A stretch of 64,000 nucleotides of DNA from Roseiflexaceae bacterium (GCA_947450095.1 CANFUF010000006.1:1004-65003); one strand, 5' to 3'. Positions 3,329-32,532 are shown, numbered from the stretch's first letter. Numbers and translations are program-made. Notes: generated by a model from the sequence alone, not told the origin.

Positions 3329-4165
3329 TTATATTCCCATTGTCCGGCCAATATAGGCTCCCAAACCCCCAAACAGTAATACAATCACCCCGGCAATGAC
3401 ATCGCGGGCCGTAGCGTGCATGGTGCGGCGCTTGGTGCGCCCTTCGCCGCCCCGATAACAGCGGGCGTTCATGGCGACAATCAAAATCTCGGCGCGACTC
3501 AAGGCATTGACAAATAGGGGAATCAACACCGGTACCAGTTTGCGGGTACGGGCGATGACGCTGCCTTGATCAAACCGCACGCCCCGGGCGATTTGGGCGC
3601 GCATCAGGCGCTCGAGTTCGGTAATCAGCAAGGGCACAAATTTGAGCGCAATCGTCATCGTCATCACAAATTCGTTGACAGGGAATTTGAGTTTTTTGAG
3701 GGGATCCATCATGATTTCGGCACCATCAGACAAATCCATCATGGTGGTGGTAAACATCAATGTATTGATTGAATGATAGAGCACAATCACGCGACTGAGC
3801 GTAAAAATACCGCCGAGGATGCCTTCGTACGACACCGACAAAATCCACCAGCGCCAGTAATAGTGCATTTCTACGCCCGGTATTGCCTGATAAAACAAGA
3901 CCTGGAACGGTACAAAAAAGAGCATGGTACGAAACAACAAGCGGTAACCACGCAACGTATAGCCGATTGGGATGCGGGTGGCGAGTTGTACGATAATCGC
4001 GAGTGCAAATAATGGCGCAATACTAATGAGCCCCCGAGTCATAAAGGCACACGCCATAATCACTGCCGCACAAATCATTTTGGTGCGCGGGTCGAGGTTG
4101 TGTACCGCCGAACGGATATCGATGTATTGACCAAACGTCACATTTCGAGAAAACTCAAGCGACAT
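3329..4165 (-). CDS. ecfT: Energy-coupling factor transporter transmembrane (T) component, CbiQ/EcfT family
   Basis: Polytopic membrane protein directly after the ECF ATPase gene. ATG at 4165 (MSLEFSRN) is preceded by GGAGG and overlaps the ecfA stop by 11 nt. Confidence 0.85.
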   Translation of the reverse strand: MSLEFSRNVTFGQYIDIRSAVHNLDPRTKMICAAVIMACAFMTRGLISIAPLFALAIIVQLATRIPIGYTLRGYRLLFRTMLFFVPFQVLFYQAIPGVEMHYYWRWWILSVSYEGILGGIFTLSRVIVLYHSINTLMFTTTMMDLSDGAEIMMDPLKKLKFPVNEFVMTMTIALKFVPLLITELERLMRAQIARGVRFDQGSVIARTRKLVPVLIPLFVNALSRAEILIVAMNARCYRGGEGRTKRRTMHATARDVIAGVIVLLFGGLGAYIGRTMGI

Positions 4166-5921
4166 GCGTGCCTCCTTGGGTGGTGCCATAGCGTTGCACA
4201 ATTACATCGCGTAGCTCATCGACATGCAACAAATTGGTGGGCATATCGCTGATATGTTGGCGGAGCACGCGGGCAATTTCGGCCGTTTCACTCAATTCCA
4301 AGCCAATCCCATGCAACATATCGGCATCGTTGAGCAATTCGCGCAACGTGCCTTGATCGACAACCCGCCCCTCGTGCATCACGATGGCACGGTCGGCCAA
4401 CTCGGCCAGTTCGTCGATGGTATTACCCACGAGGATGACGGTCAAATTGCGCTCTTTGGTCAAGCGGGCAATCAAATTGGCCAGCTCGGTGCGGCCACGC
4501 GGATCAAGCCCCGCCACCGGCTCATCAAGGATGAGCACCTCGGGCTGGCTAGCCAGGACACCGGCAATCGCTACGCGCCGTTTTTGACCACCACTCAAGG
4601 CATAGACATACCGCAAACGAAACGTCTGGTAATCGAGCCCTACCGCCGTCAAACATTCTTCGACAATCGCCCGTGATTGTTCGGGGGGCAGCCCGCGCCG
4701 TCGTGGCGAAAAAGAGACATCTTTGCCGACGGTTTCTTCAAATAATTGCGTTTCGGGTTGTTGGAACACGATGCCGATGCGGTCACGCAATGCCCCAATA
4801 TCATACCCTTTGGCAAATATCTCTTTGCCATCAACGGTTATCGTCCCGTGTTGTGGTTTGCGGAGCCCATTGATGCATTCAATCAAGGTACTTTTGCCGG
4901 CCTGGGTGCCTCCCAAGAGCGCCACGATTTCGCCTTTGCCTATCTGACAGGTCGCGCCACTCAGCCCCACACTGGCCATCGGTGTCCCTTGCATATAGGT
5001 GAAATGCACGTTGTCGATAGCGATGATGGTATCGTGGGTGCGTTGCGGCGGTTGGTCGGTGGGTTGGAGTGGTCTGGTCACCCCGATGTCTTGGCGTGGT
5101 AATGGTACCAAGGCATCACGCAGTTGATTGGGCGTCAATACGGGCTGGGGGATGGTGATGCCGTGGTGCATCAGTTGGGCCCCGAGGCGGGTTACCAGTG
5201 GTACATCGAGCCCCACCTGGCGGAGCTCATTGGCCCGCAGAAAGACATCCTGTGGTGTACCATCCATAAACACGTTGCCACCATCCATCACAATAATGCG
5301 GTCGAAATCGACCACTTCGTGCATGAAGTGGGTGATGTGAATTACACTCACGCCATGATTGTCACGCAATTCATGGGCCAGGCGCAGTAAGTTGCGCGCG
5401 AGTGGCGGTGCAATCATAGTCGTGGGTTCATCGAGGATCAGACAGGCGGGTTGCATTGCCAGTACCCCGGCAATTGCTACCCGCTGACGCTCGCCCCCCG
5501 ACAAGCTACTAATCTGGGAGTTGGCGAGGGCACTTAGTCCGAGTGAGGCGAGGATTGCTTGGACGCGGGCTTCGATTTGTTCCCGGGGCATTCCCAGATT
5601 TTCGGGGCCAAAGGCAATATCGTCGATGACGCGATTGGCCACCAGTTGGTCATCGGGGCGTTGGAACACCAATCCCACTTGGCGGCGGATGTCATACGCC
5701 GAATCTTCGGTCAATGTGACTCCATTGACTTCGACCCGCCCACTGGTGGGCATATACACCGCTGCGAGTACTTTGGCAAGGGTACTTTTGCCACTGCCGT
5801 TATGCCCGAGCAGTGCCACTAATTCACCTGGCTTAATGGTGAGATTGACTCCTTTGAGGGCATGGATGGCATCGTCGCGCCCTGCATTGTAGTCATAGGT
5901 TAAATCGGTGAGTTGTATCAT
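4155..5921 (-). CDS. ecfA: Fused duplicated ECF/ABC ATPase (EcfA1-EcfA2 in one polypeptide)
   Basis: Two Walker A sites (GHNGSGKST, GGTQAGKST) and two ABC signatures (LSGGERQRVAIAG, LSGGQKRRVAIAG). Start taken at MIQLTDLTYDY. Confidence 0.9.
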   Translation of the reverse strand: MIQLTDLTYDYNAGRDDAIHALKGVNLTIKPGELVALLGHNGSGKSTLAKVLAAVYMPTSGRVEVNGVTLTEDSAYDIRRQVGLVFQRPDDQLVANRVIDDIAFGPENLGMPREQIEARVQAILASLGLSALANSQISSLSGGERQRVAIAGVLAMQPACLILDEPTTMIAPPLARNLLRLAHELRDNHGVSVIHITHFMHEVVDFDRIIVMDGGNVFMDGTPQDVFLRANELRQVGLDVPLVTRLGAQLMHHGITIPQPVLTPNQLRDALVPLPRQDIGVTRPLQPTDQPPQRTHDTIIAIDNVHFTYMQGTPMASVGLSGATCQIGKGEIVALLGGTQAGKSTLIECINGLRKPQHGTITVDGKEIFAKGYDIGALRDRIGIVFQQPETQLFEETVGKDVSFSPRRRGLPPEQSRAIVEECLTAVGLDYQTFRLRYVYALSGGQKRRVAIAGVLASQPEVLILDEPVAGLDPRGRTELANLIARLTKERNLTVILVGNTIDELAELADRAIVMHEGRVVDQGTLRELLNDADMLHGIGLELSETAEIARVLRQHISDMPTNLLHVDELRDVIVQRYGTTQGGTHVA

Positions 5922-5990
5922 GCCTATACCTTTAAACCGGCAAGCCACACCTGCACGGGTGACTTGCCGGTAGTCGGGGATTCCGCAAAA

Positions 5991-6542
5991 TTAGTAGTTG
6001 CCGTCTTTGGTATCGGCGGCGGTGGTGCGCCCTGAGCGTACCAAATTGACGCCTTGGGCGACCAATACCGTAATAATTGCCGCCAACACCACTTCAACCA
6101 ATGCTTGCGGGACAATCGTGGGGATGGCAGCCGCGGGGATTAACCCAAATGCGACTAATGCACCAACCACCAAAATCGTGTTGGTCAAGGTCCCAACCAC
6201 ACCGGCTGCTGCTGCCGCTACGGCCCCATTGCCGCCTGACAGTGATTTGTAGGTGTAGTATGACGTCACACCAATCAACAATCGCGGTAATACGGATACG
6301 ATTGGATTGGTAAACAACCCGGTGGTGTCGGTAACCATACTATAAATGCCAAAGATTGCCCCAACGAGTACTCCGACAATTGGTCCTTCGAGTACCGCAC
6401 CCAAAATTACCGGGATGTGCATGATGGTCGCACTACCGCTCAAGTTGGGGACCGGGATGAACCCCAATTGTGTCACACCGAGCACAATTGCAATGGCGCT
6501 CAAGACACCGGCGACCACGATTTGGCGAACGTTGATCTTCAT
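5991..6542 (-). CDS. ECF transporter substrate-specific (S) component, specificity unknown
   Basis: Roughly 180-aa Gly/Ala/Val-rich protein with about 6 TM segments immediately upstream of ecfA-ecfT. Start at MKINVRQ (6542) is uncertain; an alternative ATG lies at 6560. Confidence 0.7.
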   Translation of the reverse strand: MKINVRQIVVAGVLSAIAIVLGVTQLGFIPVPNLSGSATIMHIPVILGAVLEGPIVGVLVGAIFGIYSMVTDTTGLFTNPIVSVLPRLLIGVTSYYTYKSLSGGNGAVAAAAAGVVGTLTNTILVVGALVAFGLIPAAAIPTIVPQALVEVVLAAIITVLVAQGVNLVRSGRTTAADTKDGNY

Positions 6543-6607
6543 TGACAGGTTCCCTTTCATCGTTACTACAAACCCAATATGGCGTCGAGGCAATTCCTCG
6601 TTTCACC

Positions 6608-22702: not shown

Positions 22703-23659
22703 ATGTCGCAATTTGCTGATTACATCGCTCGCCAAACGCCCTTGATTGTCGATGGTGCCCTCGCCACCGAAATGGAAGCCCGCGGCGCTGATTTACACGA
22801 TTCACTCTGGTCGGCCCGCTATCTGTTTGCCCAACCCCAATTAATCCACGATGTGCATGCCGATTATATCGCTGCTGGCGCCGATATCGTGATTACTGCG
22901 AGCTATCAAGCCACCATTGCTGGCTTCCTCGCACGGGGGTGGACACAATCCCAAGCCGAACAACTTATCTGCACAGCGGTGGCGCTGGCCCAATCGGCCC
23001 GCGACGCCTGGTGGGACGCCAATGCCGCCACCACCATCCGTTTGCGCCCGTTGGTGGCTGGCTCGATAGGACCCTATGGCGCCTATACTGCCGACGGTGG
23101 CGAATACCGGGGGAATTATGGCTTGTCCCTCACTGAACTCAAAAACTTCCATCGTGAGCGCATGCGGATTTTGGTTGATGCCGGCGTCGATTTGCTGGCC
23201 TGCGAAACCATCCCCGATCTCGTCGAAGCCCAAGCCTTGGCCGAACTCCTCGGCGAGTTCCCTGGCGTCGTGGCCTGGCTGAGTCTGAGCTGCCAGAATG
23301 GCAGTCAGACCTGTGCCGGGCAATAGTTGGTTGACGTGGCCACCTGCCTGCGTCAATACCCCCAGATTGTGGCGATTGGTGCAAATTGTACGCCACCACA
23401 ATACATGACCGAGATTATTGGGACCTTGCACGCACACTCGCCTCAGGCAGTGGTTGTTTATCCTAATTCCGGTGAAACATATGACGGCGCTACTGGCACG
23501 TGGCACGGTACCGTCACCTGTGACGATTACGTGCAGGCCGCCCAGACGTGGTTGGCCGCGGGGGCACACTTGATTGGTGGCTGTTGCCGCACCAATCCGG
23601 CTATGATTGCCGGCCTGCGGACTGCATTTTTGTCAAAAGGAGCTGATGATGCAATTTGA
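22703..23659 (+). pseudogene. mmuM: Homocysteine S-methyltransferase (MmuM/YbgG-like) interrupted by one in-frame TAG at 23324-23326
   Basis: Track ORFs 22703..23326 and 23327..23659 are in the same frame. Together they give a colinear MmuM-like protein (DGALATEMEARG, ITASYQA, ACETIP, GANC, VYPNSGE, GGCCRT). Confidence 0.75.
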
Positions 23660-24631: not shown

Positions 24632-24672
24632 AAACCCCCACGCACTGATATGTGTCAGTGCGTGGGGGTTTT
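24632..24672. terminator. Bidirectional rho-independent terminator between convergent genes
   Basis: Perfect 17-bp stem aaacccccacgcactga / tcagtgcgtgggggttt with loop tatgtg. T-run on the plus side, A-run on the other. Confidence 0.75.
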
Positions 24673-24693: not shown

Positions 24694-25917
24694 TTAGCGG
24701 AATGGTGGTGAGGCAAGCACACCACCGCCACCCAGATTCCAGGCTTTGTTGGGTCCGCGGTCGATGTTGAACATCGTCGTGGGTCCGAGGTTGGTGTTGT
24801 AAATGTCACCATAATTGCCGACCTGCGACACGATTTGATAGCCAAAGTCTGGTGCCAGCCCAAACTGACTACCGATTTTGCCTTCGGCACCGAGCAAGCG
24901 CAACACACGGGGGTCTTTGCTGGTGGTCAACATTTCGTCGACATTGCTGCGGTCGACCCGCAACTCTTCGGCGTACATGGTGGCATAGACCGACCAGCTG
25001 ACGATGTCGTACCATTGATCGTCACCTTCGGCCATCACCGGACCCAACGGCTCGCGTGAAATGCGGTCGCCGAGGATGATGTGGTCGTCTGGTTTGGGGA
25101 AGTTGACCCGTTGGACTGCCAATTGGCTACTATCGCTGGTGACAGCATCACATTTGCCGTCGAGATAGCTTTGGTACAGCACGTTTTCGCCGTTGATTTC
25201 TACCGCCTCAAAGGTAATCCCACGGGCGGCAAAATCATCACGCAAGTTAATCAAACTGGTGGTACCAGCGCTGGCGCAAATCCGTTTGTCACGCAAATCT
25301 TCGAGGGTTTTGATGCCACTTTTTTTGGTGACCAAAAAAGTCTGGCCGTCGTGGAATGTGGTGGGTCCAAACATTAATCCTGATCCGTCGCGTGAGGCTG
25401 TCCATGTGGTATTGCGAATGACCACGTCGACGAGTTTGCTCCGAATCGCCGTGAAGCGTTCGTTGGGACCGTCGTTGGTGGTGACTGGGACAAAATTGAC
25501 CTTGTTGGCGTCGCCGAGTACTGCTGCGGCGATGACACGACAAAAATCAACATCGAAGCCGGTCCAGCGTTTGCGCACCGCATCATAAAACCCAAACCCA
25601 GGCAGATCGGCGTTGACGCCACAATTCAAGACGCCCCGTGATTGCACTGCCACCAGCGTGGATTCGCCAATTGAGGCGGGGGCTGGGGCTGGCTCGGGGG
25701 TTGCGACGCTGGTGTCTGCAGTCGGCGCGGTATCTAACGCCACTGGGGTTTCGGTTAATTGGAGCGATACTTCTTGGTCGGCACCTTTTTGCGGTGTGGC
25801 AGTGATGATAATCACTTCGGGTGTGGGCACGGCTTGGCTGACCAACCGCCCAAGGCTGCCACAGGCCATAGTCAGCAAACTAATACCAATGATGATAAAT
25901 GGAGCGAAACGACGCAT
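24694..25917 (-). CDS. Amino-acid ABC-type substrate-binding lipoprotein (AapJ/BztA-like, family 3), orphan
   Basis: Lipobox LLTMAC, a long Thr/Pro/Ala linker, then GVLNCGVNADLPGFGF...WTGFDVDFCRVIAAAVLGD...IRNTTWT. No permease or ATPase genes adjacent. Confidence 0.8.
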   Translation of the reverse strand: MRRFAPFIIIGISLLTMACGSLGRLVSQAVPTPEVIIITATPQKGADQEVSLQLTETPVALDTAPTADTSVATPEPAPAPASIGESTLVAVQSRGVLNCGVNADLPGFGFYDAVRKRWTGFDVDFCRVIAAAVLGDANKVNFVPVTTNDGPNERFTAIRSKLVDVVIRNTTWTASRDGSGLMFGPTTFHDGQTFLVTKKSGIKTLEDLRDKRICASAGTTSLINLRDDFAARGITFEAVEINGENVLYQSYLDGKCDAVTSDSSQLAVQRVNFPKPDDHIILGDRISREPLGPVMAEGDDQWYDIVSWSVYATMYAEELRVDRSNVDEMLTTSKDPRVLRLLGAEGKIGSQFGLAPDFGYQIVSQVGNYGDIYNTNLGPTTMFNIDRGPNKAWNLGGGGVLASPPFR

Positions 25918-25928
25918 AATAGTCTCCT

Positions 25929-28622
25929 TTAGGGAGTTTTGTAGGTGTAAATAGCACCAGTAGGGACGAGTTCGACGGCGTAATTGGTGGGTAACGGTTG
26001 AGCGGCGATGGCTGCGGCGACGGCTGCACTGTATTCGGGCGCCACAATCACCAAATCACTGCCGTTTTGACGCAGGTCATCCAAAAAGGGTTGCATGGCA
26101 TTGCCATCAATCCGCTGGATCACGAGTGTGGTGTTTGTGGCGTTTTGGAGTGTCAACGTATCTGCACTCTGTGATACCACCCGCCAGTCGCCACTTTGAC
26201 TCGTGAGAATGCTCTGATCACTGCCCTTGAGCGCTTCTGGTGCCATCAGATTGGCGAGTGTCGCTGGCAAACCAGGGATATAGGTAATGGTGATTTTGCT
26301 GGCTGATTTGGCTATAATACTGGCGAAGAAAGGGCAAAGCGATTGATTTTTTGATGGACAATTCGCAAACCAGCGCACATAATCTGTAGCGGACAGTGGT
26401 GTGCCGCTGCTCCACACAATCTTGCTGAAATCGACGGTACGACTCAGTTGATTGAGGCTGGTTGGCTGGGTGAGTGGGATAATCCCACGCTCATCATCGT
26501 ACGTGAGTGCGCCGGTGTCGAGTTGGACGGTATTGGAAATTAACTCACTCGCGTTTATCCACTTCCCTTTAGCTTTGATCGTGGTAACGAGCGGAGTTTG
26601 AATCAATGGCGCCACTAGTGATTCCCAATCTGAATCAATAAATTGATTGGCGGTTACTACCGCAACCGTGATGGCGTTTTTGTTGACACTGCGTTGGCTA
26701 AATTGGCTCAACAGCGATTTACTGGGGTCAATGTTGACCTCGGCAAACAGCGTCTGATTGCGAATCAATAGTTGTGTTTGGCGCATTACTGTCGTTTGTT
26801 GGGTACAGCTGTTGTTGAGTTGACAATCGAGCAACATACCGGCATTCGTACCAAATGGAGTCCGTAATACTCCTGCGCCATCGCCACATTGGGTTAGCGC
26901 TTGTTTAGGTGCAATGAATTGGGTATTAGTCGCTACGAGCAATTTGGTGATATCAATGCTGGTGCCGTAGCGATTGGCCAAATTGCCGTCGATGCTGGTG
27001 ACACGCAATGCTTTTTGGGCTGACGGGTTAAGCATCGGCCAGGCACTGGTGACGATACTATCGGCGTTGCAGGCGGGTAATACCACCACCGCAGTCGGTT
27101 GTGCGGTGGGCGCAGGGGCAGGCACATCGGTAGCTACGGGCACATCGGTGGGAATATCGGCAGGCACATCCGTTGCCACTACGACATTTGCCCCACTTGT
27201 AGTCACTGTGTTGTTGCTGGTGGTATTTGCAGATTGGAACAACGTAGACCCGATACCGCACATGCCGATGACTGCCCCAATCAGCACGATTTTGCCCAAG
27301 GTACTGCTCCAAATCCCCGCAATGGTCGAAACGATCCACGCCCACCATAAACCGCCACTCAGATTGCCCGACGGCACACTCAGTGGTGGTGCAGATTGTG
27401 GCGTCGTTTTTGCTGGGGGAATAACCGGAATCGCCGGCTTGGCAGCTGGGGGTGTCGCCTGGGGCGTCGACGCCTGCGGTACCCGGAATGTGGGCGTTGG
27501 CGCGGGGCTCCGGGTCGATACCGGTGCAGGCTGGTGGGTCACCGGCTTGCTTGGTGGTGTGGGCATGCTCAACGGCACTTGCATCTGCACCGTGGGCTGG
27601 TTAGGGGCGTTGGCCGGGCGCTTGCGTCGCCCTACGTTGTAATCGACTTCACAAATCACACATTTGCCGTCATCAGGGTACCAATGATCGGGATTATTGC
27701 CACATTGCACCAAGCGTGGTTCGATGAGCTCGATGGTATCGGCCCACTCTTTGGGGGTAGGGCGATTGTTGGTAGTCAAAAACGCCCGTTTGAATAAATT
27801 TTGCAGGGTTGCGGGCAACGAATCAATCGGTGGTGCTGCCTTCGGTGGCGCAAATTGTGGGTTGGTTACATACGGAAATATATTTTGTTTAATGCAATGG
27901 ACATGTACTTGCTCACCAGTCGTTGTCCCAGACAACGGCCGTCCTGCAAAGGGGTGGAATCCCTGCATCAGCAATTGAAACGTCAATACCGCCAAGCCAA
28001 AGGCATCGTTGTTGGCAGTGCGATCGACTTTGGCGAAATCTTTGCCTTGGAGTTCTGGTGAGGTATATTCGGGGATGCCGACGAGACAGCGATGTACTAC
28101 GTGTTTGGCATCAGTTACCTGCATCGAATCGCAATCGACCACCGTAATCAGTGCTTGATCGTTAAATAAGGCATTGCGGAAGTTGACGTCGCCAATCACA
28201 TACCCTTTGCGATGGATGGCTGCCATCGCCAACGCCAAATTTCGCGCCGAGCGGTACAAGTGGCGATGGTTCAAGTCGGGGTGTTGTTGGGCTCGTTGTT
28301 GCGGTTGCAACAAATCATACAAATCGTCAGATTTGGGGATTTTGGGCATTATATAGCCCATAAAAGTATTGCCGTTATACAGCACCGCCTCGGGCCAGGC
28401 AATCGACACATGGTTGAATTTGGCGCGAGTTTCATCGTCGGGTGGGTCGGCCACCATGGCGGTAACTTTGGCCTCTAAGGCGGCGTCGAGCCGATGGGCG
28501 TGGTAGATTTTGGCGACCATGGTGGGCTGCCCAACCACATCAAACACCGCACCTTCGCCACCAACTCCCAATTGGGAGCCGGTGGTGATGGTTTGACCTT
28601 TGTCAGTCCGAAAACGTGGCAT
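25929..28622 (-). CDS. YegI-like Ser/Thr protein kinase with zinc-ribbon, Pro-rich linker, hydrophobic anchor and SBP-like C-terminal domain
   Basis: LGVGGEGAVFDV...VAKIYH, VIGDVNFRNALF, VDCDS, PEYTSPELQ and NDAFGLAVLTFQLL resemble E. coli YegI. C..H..C..C element (CGNNPDHWYPDDGKCVIC). ~40-aa hydrophobic stretch. C-terminal Cys-containing domain with SGTPLSATDYVRWF. Confidence 0.8.
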   Translation of the reverse strand: MPRFRTDKGQTITTGSQLGVGGEGAVFDVVGQPTMVAKIYHAHRLDAALEAKVTAMVADPPDDETRAKFNHVSIAWPEAVLYNGNTFMGYIMPKIPKSDDLYDLLQPQQRAQQHPDLNHRHLYRSARNLALAMAAIHRKGYVIGDVNFRNALFNDQALITVVDCDSMQVTDAKHVVHRCLVGIPEYTSPELQGKDFAKVDRTANNDAFGLAVLTFQLLMQGFHPFAGRPLSGTTTGEQVHVHCIKQNIFPYVTNPQFAPPKAAPPIDSLPATLQNLFKRAFLTTNNRPTPKEWADTIELIEPRLVQCGNNPDHWYPDDGKCVICEVDYNVGRRKRPANAPNQPTVQMQVPLSMPTPPSKPVTHQPAPVSTRSPAPTPTFRVPQASTPQATPPAAKPAIPVIPPAKTTPQSAPPLSVPSGNLSGGLWWAWIVSTIAGIWSSTLGKIVLIGAVIGMCGIGSTLFQSANTTSNNTVTTSGANVVVATDVPADIPTDVPVATDVPAPAPTAQPTAVVVLPACNADSIVTSAWPMLNPSAQKALRVTSIDGNLANRYGTSIDITKLLVATNTQFIAPKQALTQCGDGAGVLRTPFGTNAGMLLDCQLNNSCTQQTTVMRQTQLLIRNQTLFAEVNIDPSKSLLSQFSQRSVNKNAITVAVVTANQFIDSDWESLVAPLIQTPLVTTIKAKGKWINASELISNTVQLDTGALTYDDERGIIPLTQPTSLNQLSRTVDFSKIVWSSGTPLSATDYVRWFANCPSKNQSLCPFFASIIAKSASKITITYIPGLPATLANLMAPEALKGSDQSILTSQSGDWRVVSQSADTLTLQNATNTTLVIQRIDGNAMQPFLDDLRQNGSDLVIVAPEYSAAVAAAIAAQPLPTNYAVELVPTGAIYTYKTP

Positions 28623-28651
28623 TTCGTTCCCTTGTTGCTACCGATGCAAAA

Positions 28652-29215
28652 CTATAGGTAGCCATTCACAATCATGTCGAGGCGACCAGTATCTGGGTGG
28701 ATGACTAACCCGTGGACAGGCACATCTTTGGGTAGTAGCGGGTGATTTTTGATAATCGATACGGTGCTCCGCACACTCGCTTCGACGTTGTCAAAGCCTT
28801 TGAGCCATGACTCGAAATCAATCCCGGCATAGCGCAAGGTGTTGATGGTATCGTGCGAAATCCCGCGCTCGTGGGCGAGTGTCAATATTTGTTGTGGGTC
28901 AATGGTGCCCATACCACAATCGTGATGGGCGACTACGCAGATTTCTTCGGCGCGCAGACTATACACGGCCACGAGCAGACTCCGCATCACCGATCCCCAC
29001 GGGCTAGTGACCAAGGCGCCGGCGTTTTTGATGATTTTGGCGTCGCCGTTTTTGATGCCCATTGCTTTGGGCAACAATTCGACCAAGCGCGCATCCATAC
29101 AGGCCAGTACAGCCAATCCTTTGTCGGGGAAGCGATCGTCGGTTTGGAATTGTTCATATGACCGTGATGCCACAAACGACTGATTATGCGCCAACAACGA
29201 ATCCAGTAAGTTCAT
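28652..29215 (-). CDS. Beta-class carbonic anhydrase
   Basis: Zinc ligands in CMDAR and HHDCGM. 187 aa. 29 nt upstream of the kinase gene. Confidence 0.85.
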   Translation of the reverse strand: MNLLDSLLAHNQSFVASRSYEQFQTDDRFPDKGLAVLACMDARLVELLPKAMGIKNGDAKIIKNAGALVTSPWGSVMRSLLVAVYSLRAEEICVVAHHDCGMGTIDPQQILTLAHERGISHDTINTLRYAGIDFESWLKGFDNVEASVRSTVSIIKNHPLLPKDVPVHGLVIHPDTGRLDMIVNGYL

Positions 29216-29359
29216 GATGATACATTTCTAGGATGCATGAGCGGATGAGTAGATGCACCTTTGGGTAGTATACCAATTTGCATTGACAAATGAATAACCC
29301 TGATACGTTGGGCAGATGAATATGACATGGTGCCGCCGACATGCCAGTGATAGCGAGTA

Positions 29360-30013
29360 TTAATTTCCCTCAGCTTCGCGTTGGGCTAGTTCTGCTTCGA
29401 GATAGGTGCGTAATCGCAGGTGAATCGGTTCTGCCAGGAATCGCCGTATGGTATCGGTGGTGTGGGTCTGGCCAGGGCGCATAATCCGATGTGCGTCGAC
29501 GATGCGAATACCAGGGCGATGATAGGGCTGGTACGCCACCGCATCGCCGGCTTGGATTGTACCCGGCACGATGACACGGCAGTAGAATCCGGGGCGATCG
29601 GCAGCAAAGAATCGTTTGACGAACTGGTTGTCATCCATGCGGGCATTTAATGACTCGCAGGGCGTACGCGGTGCGGTGACTTCGAGTACCACTTCGCCAA
29701 TGCTGAGCCGGTCGCCAATGGTGAAGGATGCGCTTTCGAGATTGGAGATCGTGAGATTTTCGCCGAATATCCCATTTGGTAAGGCATAGCCGAGTTCTTG
29801 TGCGAATGCATCGTAATCGGGCCGGCCATAGACATAGACGGCTTGGTCGACGCCGCCATGGTTTTGGGTGTTGACAATGATATCACCACTGACCCCGGTG
29901 ACGGTGATTTGTACTGGACCGACCGTTGGCGTCTTGAAGATGCCCGACGTGCGACTGGGATTGTGGGGGTCGAGCGGTTGGGCACGACCGATGTTGATAC
30001 TCAATACCTGCAT
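29360..30013 (-). CDS. MOSC domain protein (YiiM-like)
   Basis: GDIIVNTQNHGGVDQAVY, GENLTISNL and EVTAPRTPCESL (conserved MOSC Cys). 20 nt after the PP2C gene. Confidence 0.85.
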   Translation of the reverse strand: MQVLSINIGRAQPLDPHNPSRTSGIFKTPTVGPVQITVTGVSGDIIVNTQNHGGVDQAVYVYGRPDYDAFAQELGYALPNGIFGENLTISNLESASFTIGDRLSIGEVVLEVTAPRTPCESLNARMDDNQFVKRFFAADRPGFYCRVIVPGTIQAGDAVAYQPYHRPGIRIVDAHRIMRPGQTHTTDTIRRFLAEPIHLRLRTYLEAELAQREAEGN

Positions 30014-30033
30014 TGGAATAGTTTCCTCTGTGA

Positions 30034-30855
30034 TTAGTGTTCACGCAAGGCCAACACAAGGGTCATGTCGTCGTCGCTTTTTTGGCGGAAACGGGGCGTG
30101 TCGAGTAGTTTTTGCATTGAGACATCGGTATCTGCCAAATCCAAGGTACGCAGCCATTGGATAATCGGCCGGAAAAACCCGTCGTAGGCTTCGCCCGTTT
30201 TGTAGTTGATACACATGGGTTGCACGCCATCGCTCATCAATGCCACACCCCGCAACGCTTCGGCTTTGTGGTTAAAGCGCAAATGGGTCAGGTAATCACT
30301 ACTCGTGAGTGGCATGGTCACATTGATGAATTCACCGTTATCTGGGGTGCTCAACGTACGTGTGCCCTCGTCATCAAATATACCAACCACTGCACCATCA
30401 CCAATATGCATGACGACCCAATCATTGGGCGTCACTACCGCCACCAGCAAAGTACAGGCAAAATCACGGAGTTCTTTGTGTTCGGCAGTGGCACGCACCC
30501 CCACGGCATCGCGGGCAATCGTAAAGGCCGTACGACAGACCGTTTCGAGGGTGTCTGGCTGGGGTTGGATTTTGGGCTCCGGTTTGTCTGAGAATGGCCA
30601 CCATTGAAAGCGTTTTTTGGGGGGCTTGAGTGAATCGAAATAATTTGCGATATGGGTGACAGCCTGTTCACTGGCGATTTTGGAACCCACTTCGGAATGG
30701 GCTGCCGAACCGAGTCCGTCTGACACCGCAACAATCAACGTGTCACCGATTTGCATGACATAATGACTGTCTTGACACGGCATATTGGCGCCGATATGGC
30801 CGGTGCCGATAATTGAAGCTTTGGCAATGCGCCAACTCATGATGTGTCCATTCAT
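30034..30855 (-). CDS. PP2C-family Ser/Thr protein phosphatase (YegK/PphC-like)
   Basis: GTGHIGANMPCQDS, VAVSDGLGSA and ALMSDGV metal-binding Asp motifs. Start at ATG 30855, 9 nt after GGGAGG; the track ORF starts at TTG 30864. Confidence 0.8.
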   Translation of the reverse strand: MNGHIMSWRIAKASIIGTGHIGANMPCQDSHYVMQIGDTLIVAVSDGLGSAAHSEVGSKIASEQAVTHIANYFDSLKPPKKRFQWWPFSDKPEPKIQPQPDTLETVCRTAFTIARDAVGVRATAEHKELRDFACTLLVAVVTPNDWVVMHIGDGAVVGIFDDEGTRTLSTPDNGEFINVTMPLTSSDYLTHLRFNHKAEALRGVALMSDGVQPMCINYKTGEAYDGFFRPIIQWLRTLDLADTDVSMQKLLDTPRFRQKSDDDMTLVLALREH

Positions 30856-30905
30856 TGTAGCCAACCTCCCATGCGTATATTACACATGGGAGGTTGCAAA
30901 ATTTA

Positions 30906-31565
30906 TTAGACCGTGGTCCAGCCTTCGGGTGGGGTCAACGGTACTTGTTGACCTGGTTGTGATTGCGACACTTTGCCGAGGCTGGCCGACAACCAGACAA
31001 ACATTTCGCGGAACGAATAGCCTTTGAGGGGCAACGGTGGCCGGGTCGACAATTGTTTGAGGACTTCCATGTCGGCACCTTCGACTCCTACCGAGAAGAA
31101 GGCTACGCCCTTGCGGGATTCTTCATCTTTAATCCGGACGGCGGCACTTTTCCAGGCATCGTTGTCGGTGGGGGCGCCATCGGTAATCAAAAAGATCCAT
31201 GGGCGATAGTAGGGAGTGCCATTATCGCGGTAGAGTTTTTTGCGCATGGTAATCATGTCAAGCGCTTGTTGCAAGGCGGCACCGAGGGGGGTATCGCCAC
31301 TGGCACTCAAGGTGGGGGGATTGAATTGGCTGGCACTGCTAAAGTCTTGGAGTAATTGGGCTGGCCCAAAGGTCACGATGGCGATTTCGACCCGTGATTG
31401 GGCCACACTGTCGGTCTGCAATGAATCACGGAAGGCGGCTAAGCCTTGGTTGAGCTGGTCGATTTTTTCACCGTGCATTGAACCCGACGTGTCGAGTACG
31501 AGCACACAGGCACAGCGTGGATCGGGGTTGGTTGGGTCAAATGAGACATCTGGTAAGTTCGTCAT
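30906..31565 (-). CDS. von Willebrand factor A domain protein (YegL/TerY-like)
   Basis: MIDAS motif VLDTSGSM. TerY/YegL-like N-terminus (PDPRCACVLVLDTSGSMHGEKIDQLNQGL), LITDGAPTD. 219 aa. Confidence 0.8.
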   Translation of the reverse strand: MTNLPDVSFDPTNPDPRCACVLVLDTSGSMHGEKIDQLNQGLAAFRDSLQTDSVAQSRVEIAIVTFGPAQLLQDFSSASQFNPPTLSASGDTPLGAALQQALDMITMRKKLYRDNGTPYYRPWIFLITDGAPTDNDAWKSAAVRIKDEESRKGVAFFSVGVEGADMEVLKQLSTRPPLPLKGYSFREMFVWLSASLGKVSQSQPGQQVPLTPPEGWTTV

Positions 31566-31746
31566 TGTAGACGTGCTCCTCTATACATATAGTTTCAAAC
31601 AACGACACAAAATAATCCGGTGGCATAATTCCGTACATCTAGACGTCATGCCGGTGGCGATAGTTGCAGTTGGTGTGTGTATTCTCCGTCATAATAGAGT
31701 AGTATACATTATTGCGTTGTAATGATGACGTTGTTATGGAGGAACC

Positions 31747-32532
31747 ATGTTCGATAAACTGATTCAGTCGATTAAAGCGGGCATTCAAGATGCCCAAGAG
31801 CTCGAAGCGGTGCGCCAATTATTTGTGCAAGCAATTTCTGATATGACCCTCGATGTCAACGAAATGGGCAAGCTTTACCGCGAAATAACCTCGCACGGGT
31901 TTAGTGCCGAACAAATCCACGAACTTGGCGTGTATGCCTTGCGCGATGTGATTCAGCGCGCCAAAAGCGATGGCCGCGTCGACGACGCCGAAATGCAATT
32001 GATTCAACAAATCGTGACCTTGACAAATGTCCCCAACGAAACCCTCGGTGAATTGTTGAGCGTGTTGTTTGTGCAACGCCGACTGTATGAAGTCAGCCAA
32101 GGGCGTTTGACGCCGATTACTGTCACTGGGTTGAATTTGTACGCCAATGAAAAAGCGTATTGGGCGGAGCCATGTACGTTATATGAAAATAAAATGGTGC
32201 GCCGTGAAACGGTGGGGCGGAGCCACGGCGTCAGTCTGCGCATCATGCGCGGCGTGAGTTACCGGATTGGTGGCTCAAAAGGGCAATCAATGCCGATTTA
32301 TGAAGATGTGGCCGTGGCCCAAGGGCAGTTGATTTTTACCAATCAACGCGTGGTGTTCAAAGGTGATCGCCGCACAATGATGGTGATGCTCAAAGATGTC
32401 ATCGGTGCTGACCCCTACACGAACGCCATCGTGATTCACACCAACACATCCAAGCAACCACTCAACTTCCACTATGTGCGCCCCGAATCAGCCGAGTTGG
32501 TCGCCCAGATTTTGACGCAACTCTTGGCGTAG
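31747..32532 (+). CDS. Hypothetical two-module protein: TerB-like helical N-terminus plus PH/GRAM-like beta-rich C-terminus
   Basis: AKSDGRVDDAEMQLIQQIV resembles the TerB acidic motif. The C-terminus (EKAYWAEPCTLYE...GQLIFTNQRVVFKGD) resembles bacterial PH-like domains. GGAGG precedes the ATG. The function call is weak. Confidence 0.5.
   Translation: MFDKLIQSIKAGIQDAQELEAVRQLFVQAISDMTLDVNEMGKLYREITSHGFSAEQIHELGVYALRDVIQRAKSDGRVDDAEMQLIQQIVTLTNVPNETLGELLSVLFVQRRLYEVSQGRLTPITVTGLNLYANEKAYWAEPCTLYENKMVRRETVGRSHGVSLRIMRGVSYRIGGSKGQSMPIYEDVAVAQGQLIFTNQRVVFKGDRRTMMVMLKDVIGADPYTNAIVIHTNTSKQPLNFHYVRPESAELVAQILTQLLA

Follow-up and report, generated by a model that had tools for sequence, protein, structure and literature searches.

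A YegL/PphC/YegI-type kinase triad encoded with a predicted binding-protein-like kinase ectodomain, an amino-acid-binding lipoprotein and a carbonic anhydrase in a freshwater Chloroflexia bacterium

Introduction

What is sensed by the triad of a vWA protein, a PP2C-type phosphatase and an atypical Ser/Thr kinase, a module which occurs in many phyla and whose vWA protein is strikingly conserved, is the question raised by a locus in a 64,000-nucleotide stretch of DNA (analysed as a whole and called the window here) from a Roseiflexaceae bacterium (GCA_947450095.1 CANFUF010000006.1:1004-65003). In this locus, at 24694-31565 on the minus strand, the triad genes are encoded together with genes for a MOSC protein, a beta-carbonic anhydrase (CA) and a solute-binding protein (SBP), and the kinase carries a C-terminal domain which is predicted to face outwards and to be partly related to family-5 SBPs. 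The best explanation that we can offer, and one whose chances of being right we put at about even, is that the locus encodes a receptor-kinase version of the YegL/PphC/YegI triad of Escherichia coli. The host appears to be an uncultured freshwater Roseiflexaceae-like Chloroflexia bacterium and the locus a chromosomal operon passed on by vertical descent.

In E. coli, PphC dephosphorylates the autophosphorylated, membrane-bound kinase YegI, and the only functional literature found on YegI, PphC and YegL was two studies from the Dworkin laboratory and a 2026 paper on an RNase E interaction. A TerY-P triad is by definition made up of a TerY-like vWA protein, a PP2C and a Ser/Thr kinase with a fused zinc ribbon (PMC11090510). 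Protection against T7-like phages is conferred by TerY-P-like modules, which work as defence systems on their own and also accompany CoCoNuT restriction systems. The original prediction for this locus, made from the sequence, had called the input and output of such triads essentially unknown, a view that is now partly outdated, as YegI and PphC have been characterised biochemically and TerY-P-like modules are anti-phage. The ectodomain and the dedicated SBP gene described below offer a concrete hypothesis for what one branch of the family senses. The variant occurs in just one small clade of freshwater Chloroflexia, all uncultured, and its links to CA and MOSC may be incidental.

Results

The triad genes lie within a six-gene operon

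Six co-directional open reading frames (ORFs) lie on the minus strand in the order vWA, PP2C, MOSC, beta-CA, kinase and SBP (ORF listing), with the following features:

30906-31565, minus strand: vWA gene, 219 amino acids (aa); YegL-like, cytoplasmic, with a complete metal ion-dependent adhesion site (MIDAS)
30034-30864, minus strand: PP2C gene, 276 aa from a TTG start; PphC/YegK-like phosphatase
29360-30013, minus strand: MOSC gene, 217 aa; YiiM-like; preferably read as a facultative passenger
29216-29359, minus strand: MOSC-CA gap of 144 nt; the interval of varying MOSC copy number
28652-29215, minus strand: beta-CA gene, 187 aa; Cab-type; between the PP2C and kinase genes
25929-28622, minus strand: kinase gene, 897 aa
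27618-28622, minus strand: kinase residues 1-335, YegI-type atypical Ser/Thr kinase domain plus zinc ribbon
27651-27704, minus strand: zinc ribbon C-x5-H-x7-C-x2-C, residues 307-324, within the kinase N-terminal segment
27234-27617, minus strand: kinase residues 336-463, Pro-rich linker and then the hydrophobic stretch 425-463 (hydropathy)
25932-27071, minus strand: kinase residues 518-897, predicted ectodomain, SBP family-5-like
24694-25917, minus strand: SBP gene, 407 aa; AapJ-like family-3 amino-acid-binding lipoprotein
24632-24671, minus strand: terminator hairpin that ends the operon and is common to a convergent Rieske-oxygenase gene

The intergenic gaps in this order are 41 (or 50), 20, 144, 29 and 11 nt, the first being 50 nt if the PP2C gene begins with an alternative ATG at 30855 (273 aa), which is the start chosen by a gene caller for an identical public contig. 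The kinase stop codon TAA continues straight into the Shine-Dalgarno (SD) sequence AAGGAG, 6 nt ahead of the ATG of the SBP gene, an overlap which indicates that the SBP gene is translationally coupled to the kinase gene. The terminator hairpin has a 17-bp stem (dG -33.1 kcal/mol, z=-9.78 against shuffled sequences) followed by UUUCUUC. The gene array, its gaps, the SD/stop junction and the terminator were thus all confirmed as they had been predicted (ORF listing, Pfam and folding), and, judged by this layout, the six genes form a real operon. In six genomes of the clade described below the CA and kinase genes are 2-29 nt apart and the kinase and SBP genes 9-12 nt, and the tight coupling of the SBP gene to the kinase gene, which had also been pointed out, was seen in every relative.

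The 144-nt gap contains no sigma-70-like consensus match on the minus strand, a result that is uninformative for a Chloroflexia promoter, and it folds like shuffled sequences (z=0.23), with no terminator-like hairpin; in relatives without the MOSC gene the PP2C-CA distance is 41-53 nt. As the CA gene lies inside the triad operon, CA would necessarily be co-expressed with the triad unless there is an internal promoter, which the original prediction had thought possible for this gap and which would make two transcription units.

The vWA protein, phosphatase and kinase domain correspond to YegL, PphC and YegI

Pfam searches of the locus proteins matched VWA (E=5.9e-13) and PP2C_2 (PF13672, E=7e-47). 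With the E. coli K-12 yegI-yegJ-pphC-yegL region as the reference, BLASTP gave 58% identity between the vWA protein and YegL (E=3e-84, MIDAS residues aligned), 30% between the phosphatase and PphC/YegK (E=1e-33) and 33% between kinase residues 6-327 and YegI (E=7e-49). The MIDAS of the vWA protein is complete (D25-x-S-x-S, GDT, TDG). Pfam Pkinase scored the kinase at 27.6 bits, under the 31.7 cut-off, as is expected for an atypical kinase family. When 16 diverse homologues were aligned, the G-loop GGEG (GGEGAV), K38 (VAK), D145/N150 (GDVNxxN) and D163/D165 were invariant or nearly invariant, and so were the zinc ribbon residues C307/H313/C321/C324. K38 and D145 align with YegI residues K39 and D141, both of which were mutated in bioRxiv 10.1101/819920 (the two-residue offset in the YegI numbering is due to the annotated start). 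The triad is therefore assigned, from these identities, as a YegL/PphC/YegI (TerY-P-type) module orthologous to the E. coli proteins. This agrees with the original prediction, which had named both the triad and the YegI-like N-terminus with its zinc ribbon; the worry that the kinase might belong to an unrelated family lacking catalytic residues can be set aside, as these residues are present and the domain aligns with YegI.

The order vWA-PP2C-kinase is kept in this locus, where the distance from the vWA start to the kinase start is 2943 nt, with the MOSC and CA genes in between. The median for this distance is 1550 nt in distant triads (n=53), which leaves no room for other genes.

An assignment as a TerY-P defence system was also tried and was rejected, since the PADLOC matches were not significant for all three proteins. 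Among the seven proteins searched, TerY was matched at E=0.0076 with no stretch passing, the phosphatase had no match of any kind, the other TerY-P components of PADLOC were not matched either, and the kinase gave weak matches to the PD-T4-6 (E=9e-8), MkoA and mad6 models. As the TerY match was non-significant and the phosphatase unmatched, the locus was filed as a YegLKI/TerY-P signalling triad and not as a defence system. The vWA protein and the kinase match PHROG families.

The kinase has one conserved transmembrane helix and a predicted binding-protein-like ectodomain

The Pro-rich linker, the hydrophobic stretch of about 40 residues and the Cys-containing C-terminal domain that had been described for the kinase are all present. 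By hydropathy the stretch 425-463 consists of two halves, 425-443 and 445-463, with a single Lys (K444) between them. In an alignment of 18 full-length homologues only 445-463 was hydrophobic in all, and it was always preceded by K/R; the first half was missing in two homologues (P0026, P0028), and in the P0029/P0030/P0037 group it carried charges or was amphipathic. Four Cys residues (C518, C579, C600, C606) are invariant in the domain beyond this stretch, and the linker after the transmembrane (TM) segment is acidic and Thr/Pro-rich. The most economical reading is a kinase with one conserved TM helix, oriented N-in/C-out with its ectodomain outward, so that the extracytoplasmic placement proposed for the C-terminal domain is the most likely one.

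An AlphaFold2 model of residues 500-897, made with a 13-sequence alignment, was of good confidence, with a predicted local distance difference test score (pLDDT) of 83.4 and a predicted TM-score (pTM) of 0.83. The top 50 PDB matches in a Foldseek search with this model were all cluster-C (family 5) SBPs (E 2.6e-8 to 1.5e-5, TM-score 0.26-0.36 over some 240 columns, top probability 1.0), the structural neighbours being NikZ, YntA, AppA, NikA, chitooligosaccharide SBPs, CntA and others. A sequence profile of the ectodomain matched PrgZ and OppA structures (E=0.0025-0.15) through a single motif, W-x-DG-x-P-x-TA-x-D-[YF]-V, which is the SBP-family-5-like motif that had drawn attention to this domain; the kinase C-terminal segment through which the profile matches the OppA-family structures is SGTPLSATDYVRWF. 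Searching 1.84 billion representative proteins with the ectodomain profile yielded 18 clusters, mostly the same kinases or fragments of them, and one cluster, P0152, is a lipoprotein that matches Pfam SBP_bac_5 at E=1.2e-31 and is linked to the ectodomain at E=2.6e-4. Taken together, the model and these matches suggest that the ectodomain is probably a divergent and partial derivative of a family-5 binding protein. It may have kept the ability to bind a ligand.

P0152 was the sole non-kinase sequence relative of the ectodomain among the 18 clusters of this profile search. In this 663-aa protein the SBP_bac_5 match starts at residue 441 and the N-terminal part resembles the C-terminal half of such proteins. 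Permutation or duplication of a family-5 binding protein may have given rise to it.

The last gene of the operon encodes an AapJ-like lipoprotein

The SBP matched Pfam SBP_bac_3 (E=9e-12) and TIGR01096 (118 bits), PDB 4z9n over residues 86-397 (E=6e-74) and Mycobacterium tuberculosis GlnH (E=3e-13). Its N-terminus reads MRRFAPFIIIGISLLTMAC. The protein has a signal peptide with LTMAC and a Pro/Thr/Ala-rich tether, and is assigned by these matches as an AapJ-like family-3 amino-acid-binding lipoprotein. No gene for an amino-acid ABC permease or ATPase was found in the 64-kb window.

The sole ABC system of the window is at 3329-6593 (minus strand) and consists of a 597-aa double-ATPase (4155-5948; Walker A and LSGGQ) and two small ORFs; judged by gene layout alone it may be of the energy-coupling factor (ECF) type, and it does not look like an amino-acid importer for the SBP.

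The carbonic anhydrase is of the Cab type and the MOSC gene is facultative

The CA matched Pfam Pro_CA (E=2e-14), PDB 6y04 (E=9e-32) and Methanobacterium thermoautotrophicum Cab, 1g5c (E=7e-28). It has the zinc ligands C39/H97/C100 as well as the D41/R43 dyad, C39-M-D41-A-R43 and H97-H-D-C100 aligning with both structures, and the gene product is accordingly classed by sequence as a Cab-type beta-CA. The neighbouring sulfur-assimilation genes gave rise to the idea that it could be a CS2 or COS hydrolase, which was rejected as the scores were 100-113 bits for the Cab type versus 54-58 bits.

The MOSC protein matched Pfam MOSC (E=1.1e-32) and the YiiM structure 5yhh (E=5e-20), and reached 73 bits, below the cut-off, with the NCBIfam 6-hydroxyaminopurine reductase model. 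Its gene is single in the window, L003 and L008, double in L005 and absent in L002, L007, L010, L011, L012 and L014; these include the two closest relatives (kinase N-domain 89% identical) and four other clade members. This does not fit the suggestion that MOSC is an integral part of the system, and the reading preferred here is that it is a facultative, dispensable passenger.

The triad is widespread and the additional genes are confined to one clade

A scan of one genome per GTDB species with the kinase-domain alignment as query gave 80 loci, which were then searched by tblastn with the window proteins; 73 of these were counted as distant. The triad was found in Cyanobacteria, Chloroflexota, Verrucomicrobiota, Acidobacteriota, Proteobacteria and others. 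The vWA-PP2C-kinase order was seen in 49 of the 62 distant loci with at least 2.5 kb upstream, a recurrence beyond chance adjacency, and distant-locus vWA proteins were 43-65% identical to that of the window. Homologues of the CA, MOSC, SBP, ectodomain and 261-aa protein (the product of a divergent neighbouring gene, see below) were found by tblastn in none of the 73 distant loci. These additions are restricted to L010-L016 and the contigs retrieved with full-length kinase homologues (L002-L008), which are Roseiflexaceae/Chloroflexia metagenome-assembled genomes (MAGs) by label or by clustering. The ectodomain kinase, SBP and CA are together in every clade member examined (L002-L008, L010-L015), and the clade members share the same flanking genes, a GFO/IDH oxidoreductase gene and Rrf2 at one end and S-methyltransferase, CysD and CysNC genes at the other. 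The linkage of CA and SBP genes to the triad therefore extends beyond this genome, but since it is found in one clade only and the flanking genes are also syntenic, it is taken to have a single origin.

The junction between the PP2C and kinase genes is interrupted elsewhere as well. It holds HNH/transposase-like ORFs in two Oscillatoriales-type cyanobacterial loci (L049, L073), and a tandem second kinase in a Thermoanaerobaculaceae locus (L040). L070 and L077 carry small ORFs at this place, and E. coli K-12 carries yegJ (L001 3186-3647). Three stand-alone paralogous kinases (kinase domain 56-74% identical) have no vWA, PP2C, CA or SBP neighbours; they are uninformative on the additional genes, because the triad partners are absent beside them too.

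The Roseiflexaceae assembly of L005 (CANJHS010000002.1) holds a second, plain triad, L024 (CANJHS010000055.1), with no CA, SBP or ectodomain, and so elaborated and simple forms coexist as paralogues. Two loci with this Chloroflexia-type gene order and flanks, L010 and L014, come from MAG records labelled 'Singulisphaera sp.' and 'uncultured Klebsiella sp.', and L010 is 89-96% identical to the window, which suggests that these bins are mislabelled or contaminated.

The ectodomain is the fastest-evolving part of the locus

Amino-acid identities between the window and the more distant clade members were as follows:

CysD: 83-89%
GFO/IDH: 79-87%
vWA: 77-86%
CA: 69-79%
SBP: 65-72%
kinase domain: 65-69%
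PP2C: 52-57%
261-aa neighbour: 49-57%
ectodomain: 22-30%

The ectodomain is thus the fastest-evolving part of the locus. Pairwise ratios of non-synonymous to synonymous substitution rates (dN/dS, NG86), computed for the window against L011 and L010, were 0.02 for CA, 0.04-0.06 for vWA, 0.06-0.08 for SBP, 0.10-0.14 for the kinase domain and 0.15-0.17 for the ectodomain. With dN/dS < 0.18 in all genes compared (MOSC has no orthologue in L010/L011), these genes are judged to be under purifying selection and functional. Gene-wide positive selection on the ectodomain was considered and rejected, as its dN/dS, although the maximum of the locus, corresponds to purifying or relaxed selection.

Divergent neighbour, intergenic region and flanking genes

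Upstream of the vWA gene lie two further features:

31566-31746, no strand: intergenic (promoter) region that separates the vWA gene from the divergently oriented 261-aa gene
31747-32532, plus strand: 261-aa accessory gene, divergent from the vWA gene

The 261-aa protein has a helical N-terminal half, with Pfam matches to TerB (E=1e-4) and DUF533 (E=1e-4) that are both under cut-off, and a C-terminal half that is a PH-like beta-sandwich by model. The AlphaFold2 model had a pLDDT of 80, and Foldseek returned DH/PH, PTB, FERM-F3 and GRAM folds (E 4e-5 to 1e-2, low TM-scores). It also matched the PADLOC candidate PDC-S48 at E=1e-6. Only 22 homologues were found, nearly all of 261 aa, making it lineage-specific, and the gene adjoins the triad in all clade members examined except L007/L013. 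The C-terminal half contains an invariant GVSxRIMRGVSYRxG motif.

When seven orthologous intergenic regions were aligned, the short blocks ACGCAATAnTG and TGCAAC were found to be kept across the clade in an otherwise unalignable region, and these are candidate promoter or operator elements. A consensus scan gave one weak sigma-70-like match in this region, on the minus strand at 31737-31708. The octamer GCCACCGG occurs twice in the intergenic region of the window, 26 nt apart, a repeat which is not kept in relatives. Rfam and tRNA scans of the window gave no matches.

The homocysteine S-methyltransferase-like gene (PF02574) at 22703-23659 (plus strand) has an in-frame TAG at 23324-23326, which splits it into ORFs of 207 and 110 aa. 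All ten of the ten orthologous loci encode Ser, Pro or Thr at this position, and the split recurs in public contigs that carry this kinase, so a nonsense mutation or a pseudogene in this population is likely.

Discussion

A receptor-kinase version of the triad and its alternatives

If the locus encodes a receptor-kinase version of the YegL/PphC/YegI triad, the kinase would lie N-in/C-out in the membrane and act as a single-pass receptor kinase. An extracytoplasmic cue, most plausibly an amino acid or a small peptide, would either be captured by the lipoprotein, which would then present it to the ectodomain, or bind to the ectodomain itself, and would alter kinase autophosphorylation. Kinase and PP2C would then jointly determine how far a cytoplasmic target, in all likelihood the vWA protein, is phosphorylated, with PP2C reversing the autophosphorylation of the kinase as PphC does for YegI, and the output would run via MIDAS-dependent interactions of the vWA protein. 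CA would be co-expressed from the same transcript, perhaps as a regulated or co-required enzyme. The functional wiring of the triad to CA and SBP is what we infer from a single lineage. The fullest form of this scheme, in which an extracellular amino acid or peptide acts through the lipoprotein and the ectodomain on a vWA phosphorylation switch and CA has a functional part (for example as a link to CO2/bicarbonate supply in bicarbonate-fixing Chloroflexia), appears unlikely; if true, it would establish SBP-dependent Ser/Thr receptor kinases as a new class and give the triad its first assigned signal.

Several observations weigh against a receptor kinase. Pfam searches of the isolated ectodomain at E values up to 10 found no SBP_bac_5 (PF00496) and nothing else relevant, and the full-length kinase had no Pfam match in its C-terminal half, so that the family-5 relationship rests on the structural matches, one motif and the transitive match through P0152. 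The ectodomain matches only about half of the family-5 SBP fold (TM-score about 0.3), and of the two binding-protein-like modules originally proposed the lipoprotein is confirmed and the ectodomain is only partly SBP-like. The SBP is far better conserved than the ectodomain, which is unexpected for a tightly co-evolving receptor pair. The description of the SBP as an orphan holds in that it has no ABC partner in the window, but this is weak evidence for signalling, because its closest homologues in the outgroup (58-59% identity, from Roseiflexus-like genomes) likewise have no ABC genes beside them; a locally orphan SBP would be ordinary in these bacteria, and the argument from an orphan SBP to a sensor is weakened. 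We know of no demonstrated case, in any member of the family, of a vWA protein as the substrate of the kinase. Furthermore, the conserved gene order is no proof of function, as the flanks (GFO/IDH, Rrf2, CysD, CysNC) are equally syntenic, and synteny alone cannot separate function from descent. The junction between the PP2C and kinase genes is, from the insertions described above, an insertion-tolerant site in several phyla, so that CA may also be a passenger, and for MOSC this is the explanation to be preferred. Lastly, residues 425-443 of the window kinase could be a second TM helix, and for E. coli YegI PhoA-LacZ fusions have shown two TM helices, with both termini in the cytosol.

Much of this would be explained if the association were historical, that is, if the triad were an ordinary one of the YegLKI type into or beside which CA, MOSC and SBP were inserted or appended as unrelated genes and then inherited, with the SBP serving an ABC importer encoded elsewhere and the ectodomain being no sensor for it. 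We consider this possible but on the whole rather doubtful. The MOSC gene, with its 0-2 copies and its loss from the nearest relatives, behaves as such an account would have it, the unrelated insertions at the same junction elsewhere, the equally syntenic flanks, the unlinked outgroup SBP homologues and the disparity in rate between SBP and ectodomain are all in keeping with it, and CA evolves like a core enzyme (dN/dS 0.02). It fits less well with the finding that SBP, CA and ectodomain co-occur in the clade without exception and in 0 of 73 distant loci, that the kinase and SBP genes have stayed 9-12 nt apart, the SD overlapping the stop codon, despite the divergence of the kinase N-domain (65-69% identity) and ectodomain (22-30%), and that CA is inside the triad operon, where its co-expression would follow unless an internal promoter intervenes.

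Two further explanations appear improbable, each more so than any of the above. The triad could be an anti-phage defence switch whose fast-evolving surface domain detects phage attachment or envelope damage, as the defensive role of TerY-P-like modules on their own or alongside CoCoNuT restriction systems, the rapid evolution and extremely restricted taxonomic range of the ectodomain, the weak PADLOC matches of the vWA protein, kinase and 261-aa protein, the PHROG matches, and the restriction or AAA-type genes that adjoin some of the stand-alone paralogous kinases might suggest. The locus, however, keeps a stable position among sulfur-assimilation and core genes across a family-level clade and not in a variable defence island, it has no nuclease or other effector gene, the ectodomain dN/dS indicates relaxed constraint and not overall positive selection, PADLOC finds no phosphatase and no significant TerY, and the defence-validated variant has a kinase with an oligonucleotide/oligosaccharide-binding (OB) fold and no membrane anchor. 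Alternatively, the 40-residue stretch could form a two-helix hairpin that leaves the C-terminal domain in the cytoplasm, where it could neither sense external solutes nor meet the lipoprotein. The topology of E. coli YegI and the division of the stretch by a single Lys would be consistent with this, but against it only one TM helix is conserved among the homologues, the four invariant Cys residues and the acidic, Thr/Pro-rich linker follow that helix, and the fold relatives of the domain are exclusively extracytoplasmic binding proteins. The receptor-kinase version of the triad is thus the reading that we favour.

Comparison with known systems

The E. coli YegL-PphC-YegI module has the same three proteins in the same order, both kinases are membrane-anchored, and in both cases a foreign gene interrupts the PP2C-kinase junction (yegJ there, MOSC and CA here). 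The two differ in that YegI crosses the membrane twice and has its C-terminal region in the cytosol, whereas the kinase here has one conserved TM helix and an ectodomain of about 380 aa that is probably derived from a family-5 SBP, and the E. coli module, unlike this locus, has no carbonic anhydrase, binding protein or TerB-like neighbour. The definition of the TerY-P triad (Anantharaman et al. 2012) fits the locus, which has a weakly TerB-like gene alongside. The defence-validated TerY-P variant (Gao et al. 2020) has an OB fold where this kinase has a zinc ribbon and a membrane anchor, and this locus is outside any defence or Ter gene island.

The ectodomain shares fold neighbours and a motif with cluster-C SBPs (NikZ, NikA, OppA/AppA and chitooligosaccharide SBPs), but it is about 120 residues shorter than a full family-5 SBP, has a Cys-rich N-terminal part and is fused to a kinase instead of being secreted. 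In LuxP-LuxQ, TorT-TorS and ChvE-VirA a free periplasmic binding protein docks on the external domain of a sensor kinase encoded adjacently; these are histidine kinases and have no vWA/PP2C partner. The combination of a single-pass kinase with an ectodomain of apparent family-5 SBP descent, a coupled family-3 SBP and an embedded beta-CA was not found described in the literature searched.

A mechanistic precedent for the control of a Ser/Thr kinase by a family-3 SBP is the GlnH-GlnX-PknG system of Actinobacteria, in which the SBP signals the presence of extracellular amino acids to the kinase (PMC6069109, PMC9769921). There as here a family-3 amino-acid-binding lipoprotein is encoded with a Ser/Thr kinase, and GlnH is a detectable homologue of the SBP of this locus. 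In that system a separate protein, GlnX, relays to a soluble, TPR-containing kinase, whereas no GlnX-like or PknG-type gene is present in the operon described here and the kinase itself is predicted to span the membrane. The kinase families appear to be unrelated beyond the Hanks fold, and so the likeness to GlnH-GlnX-PknG is, by analogy, one of mechanism and not of membership.

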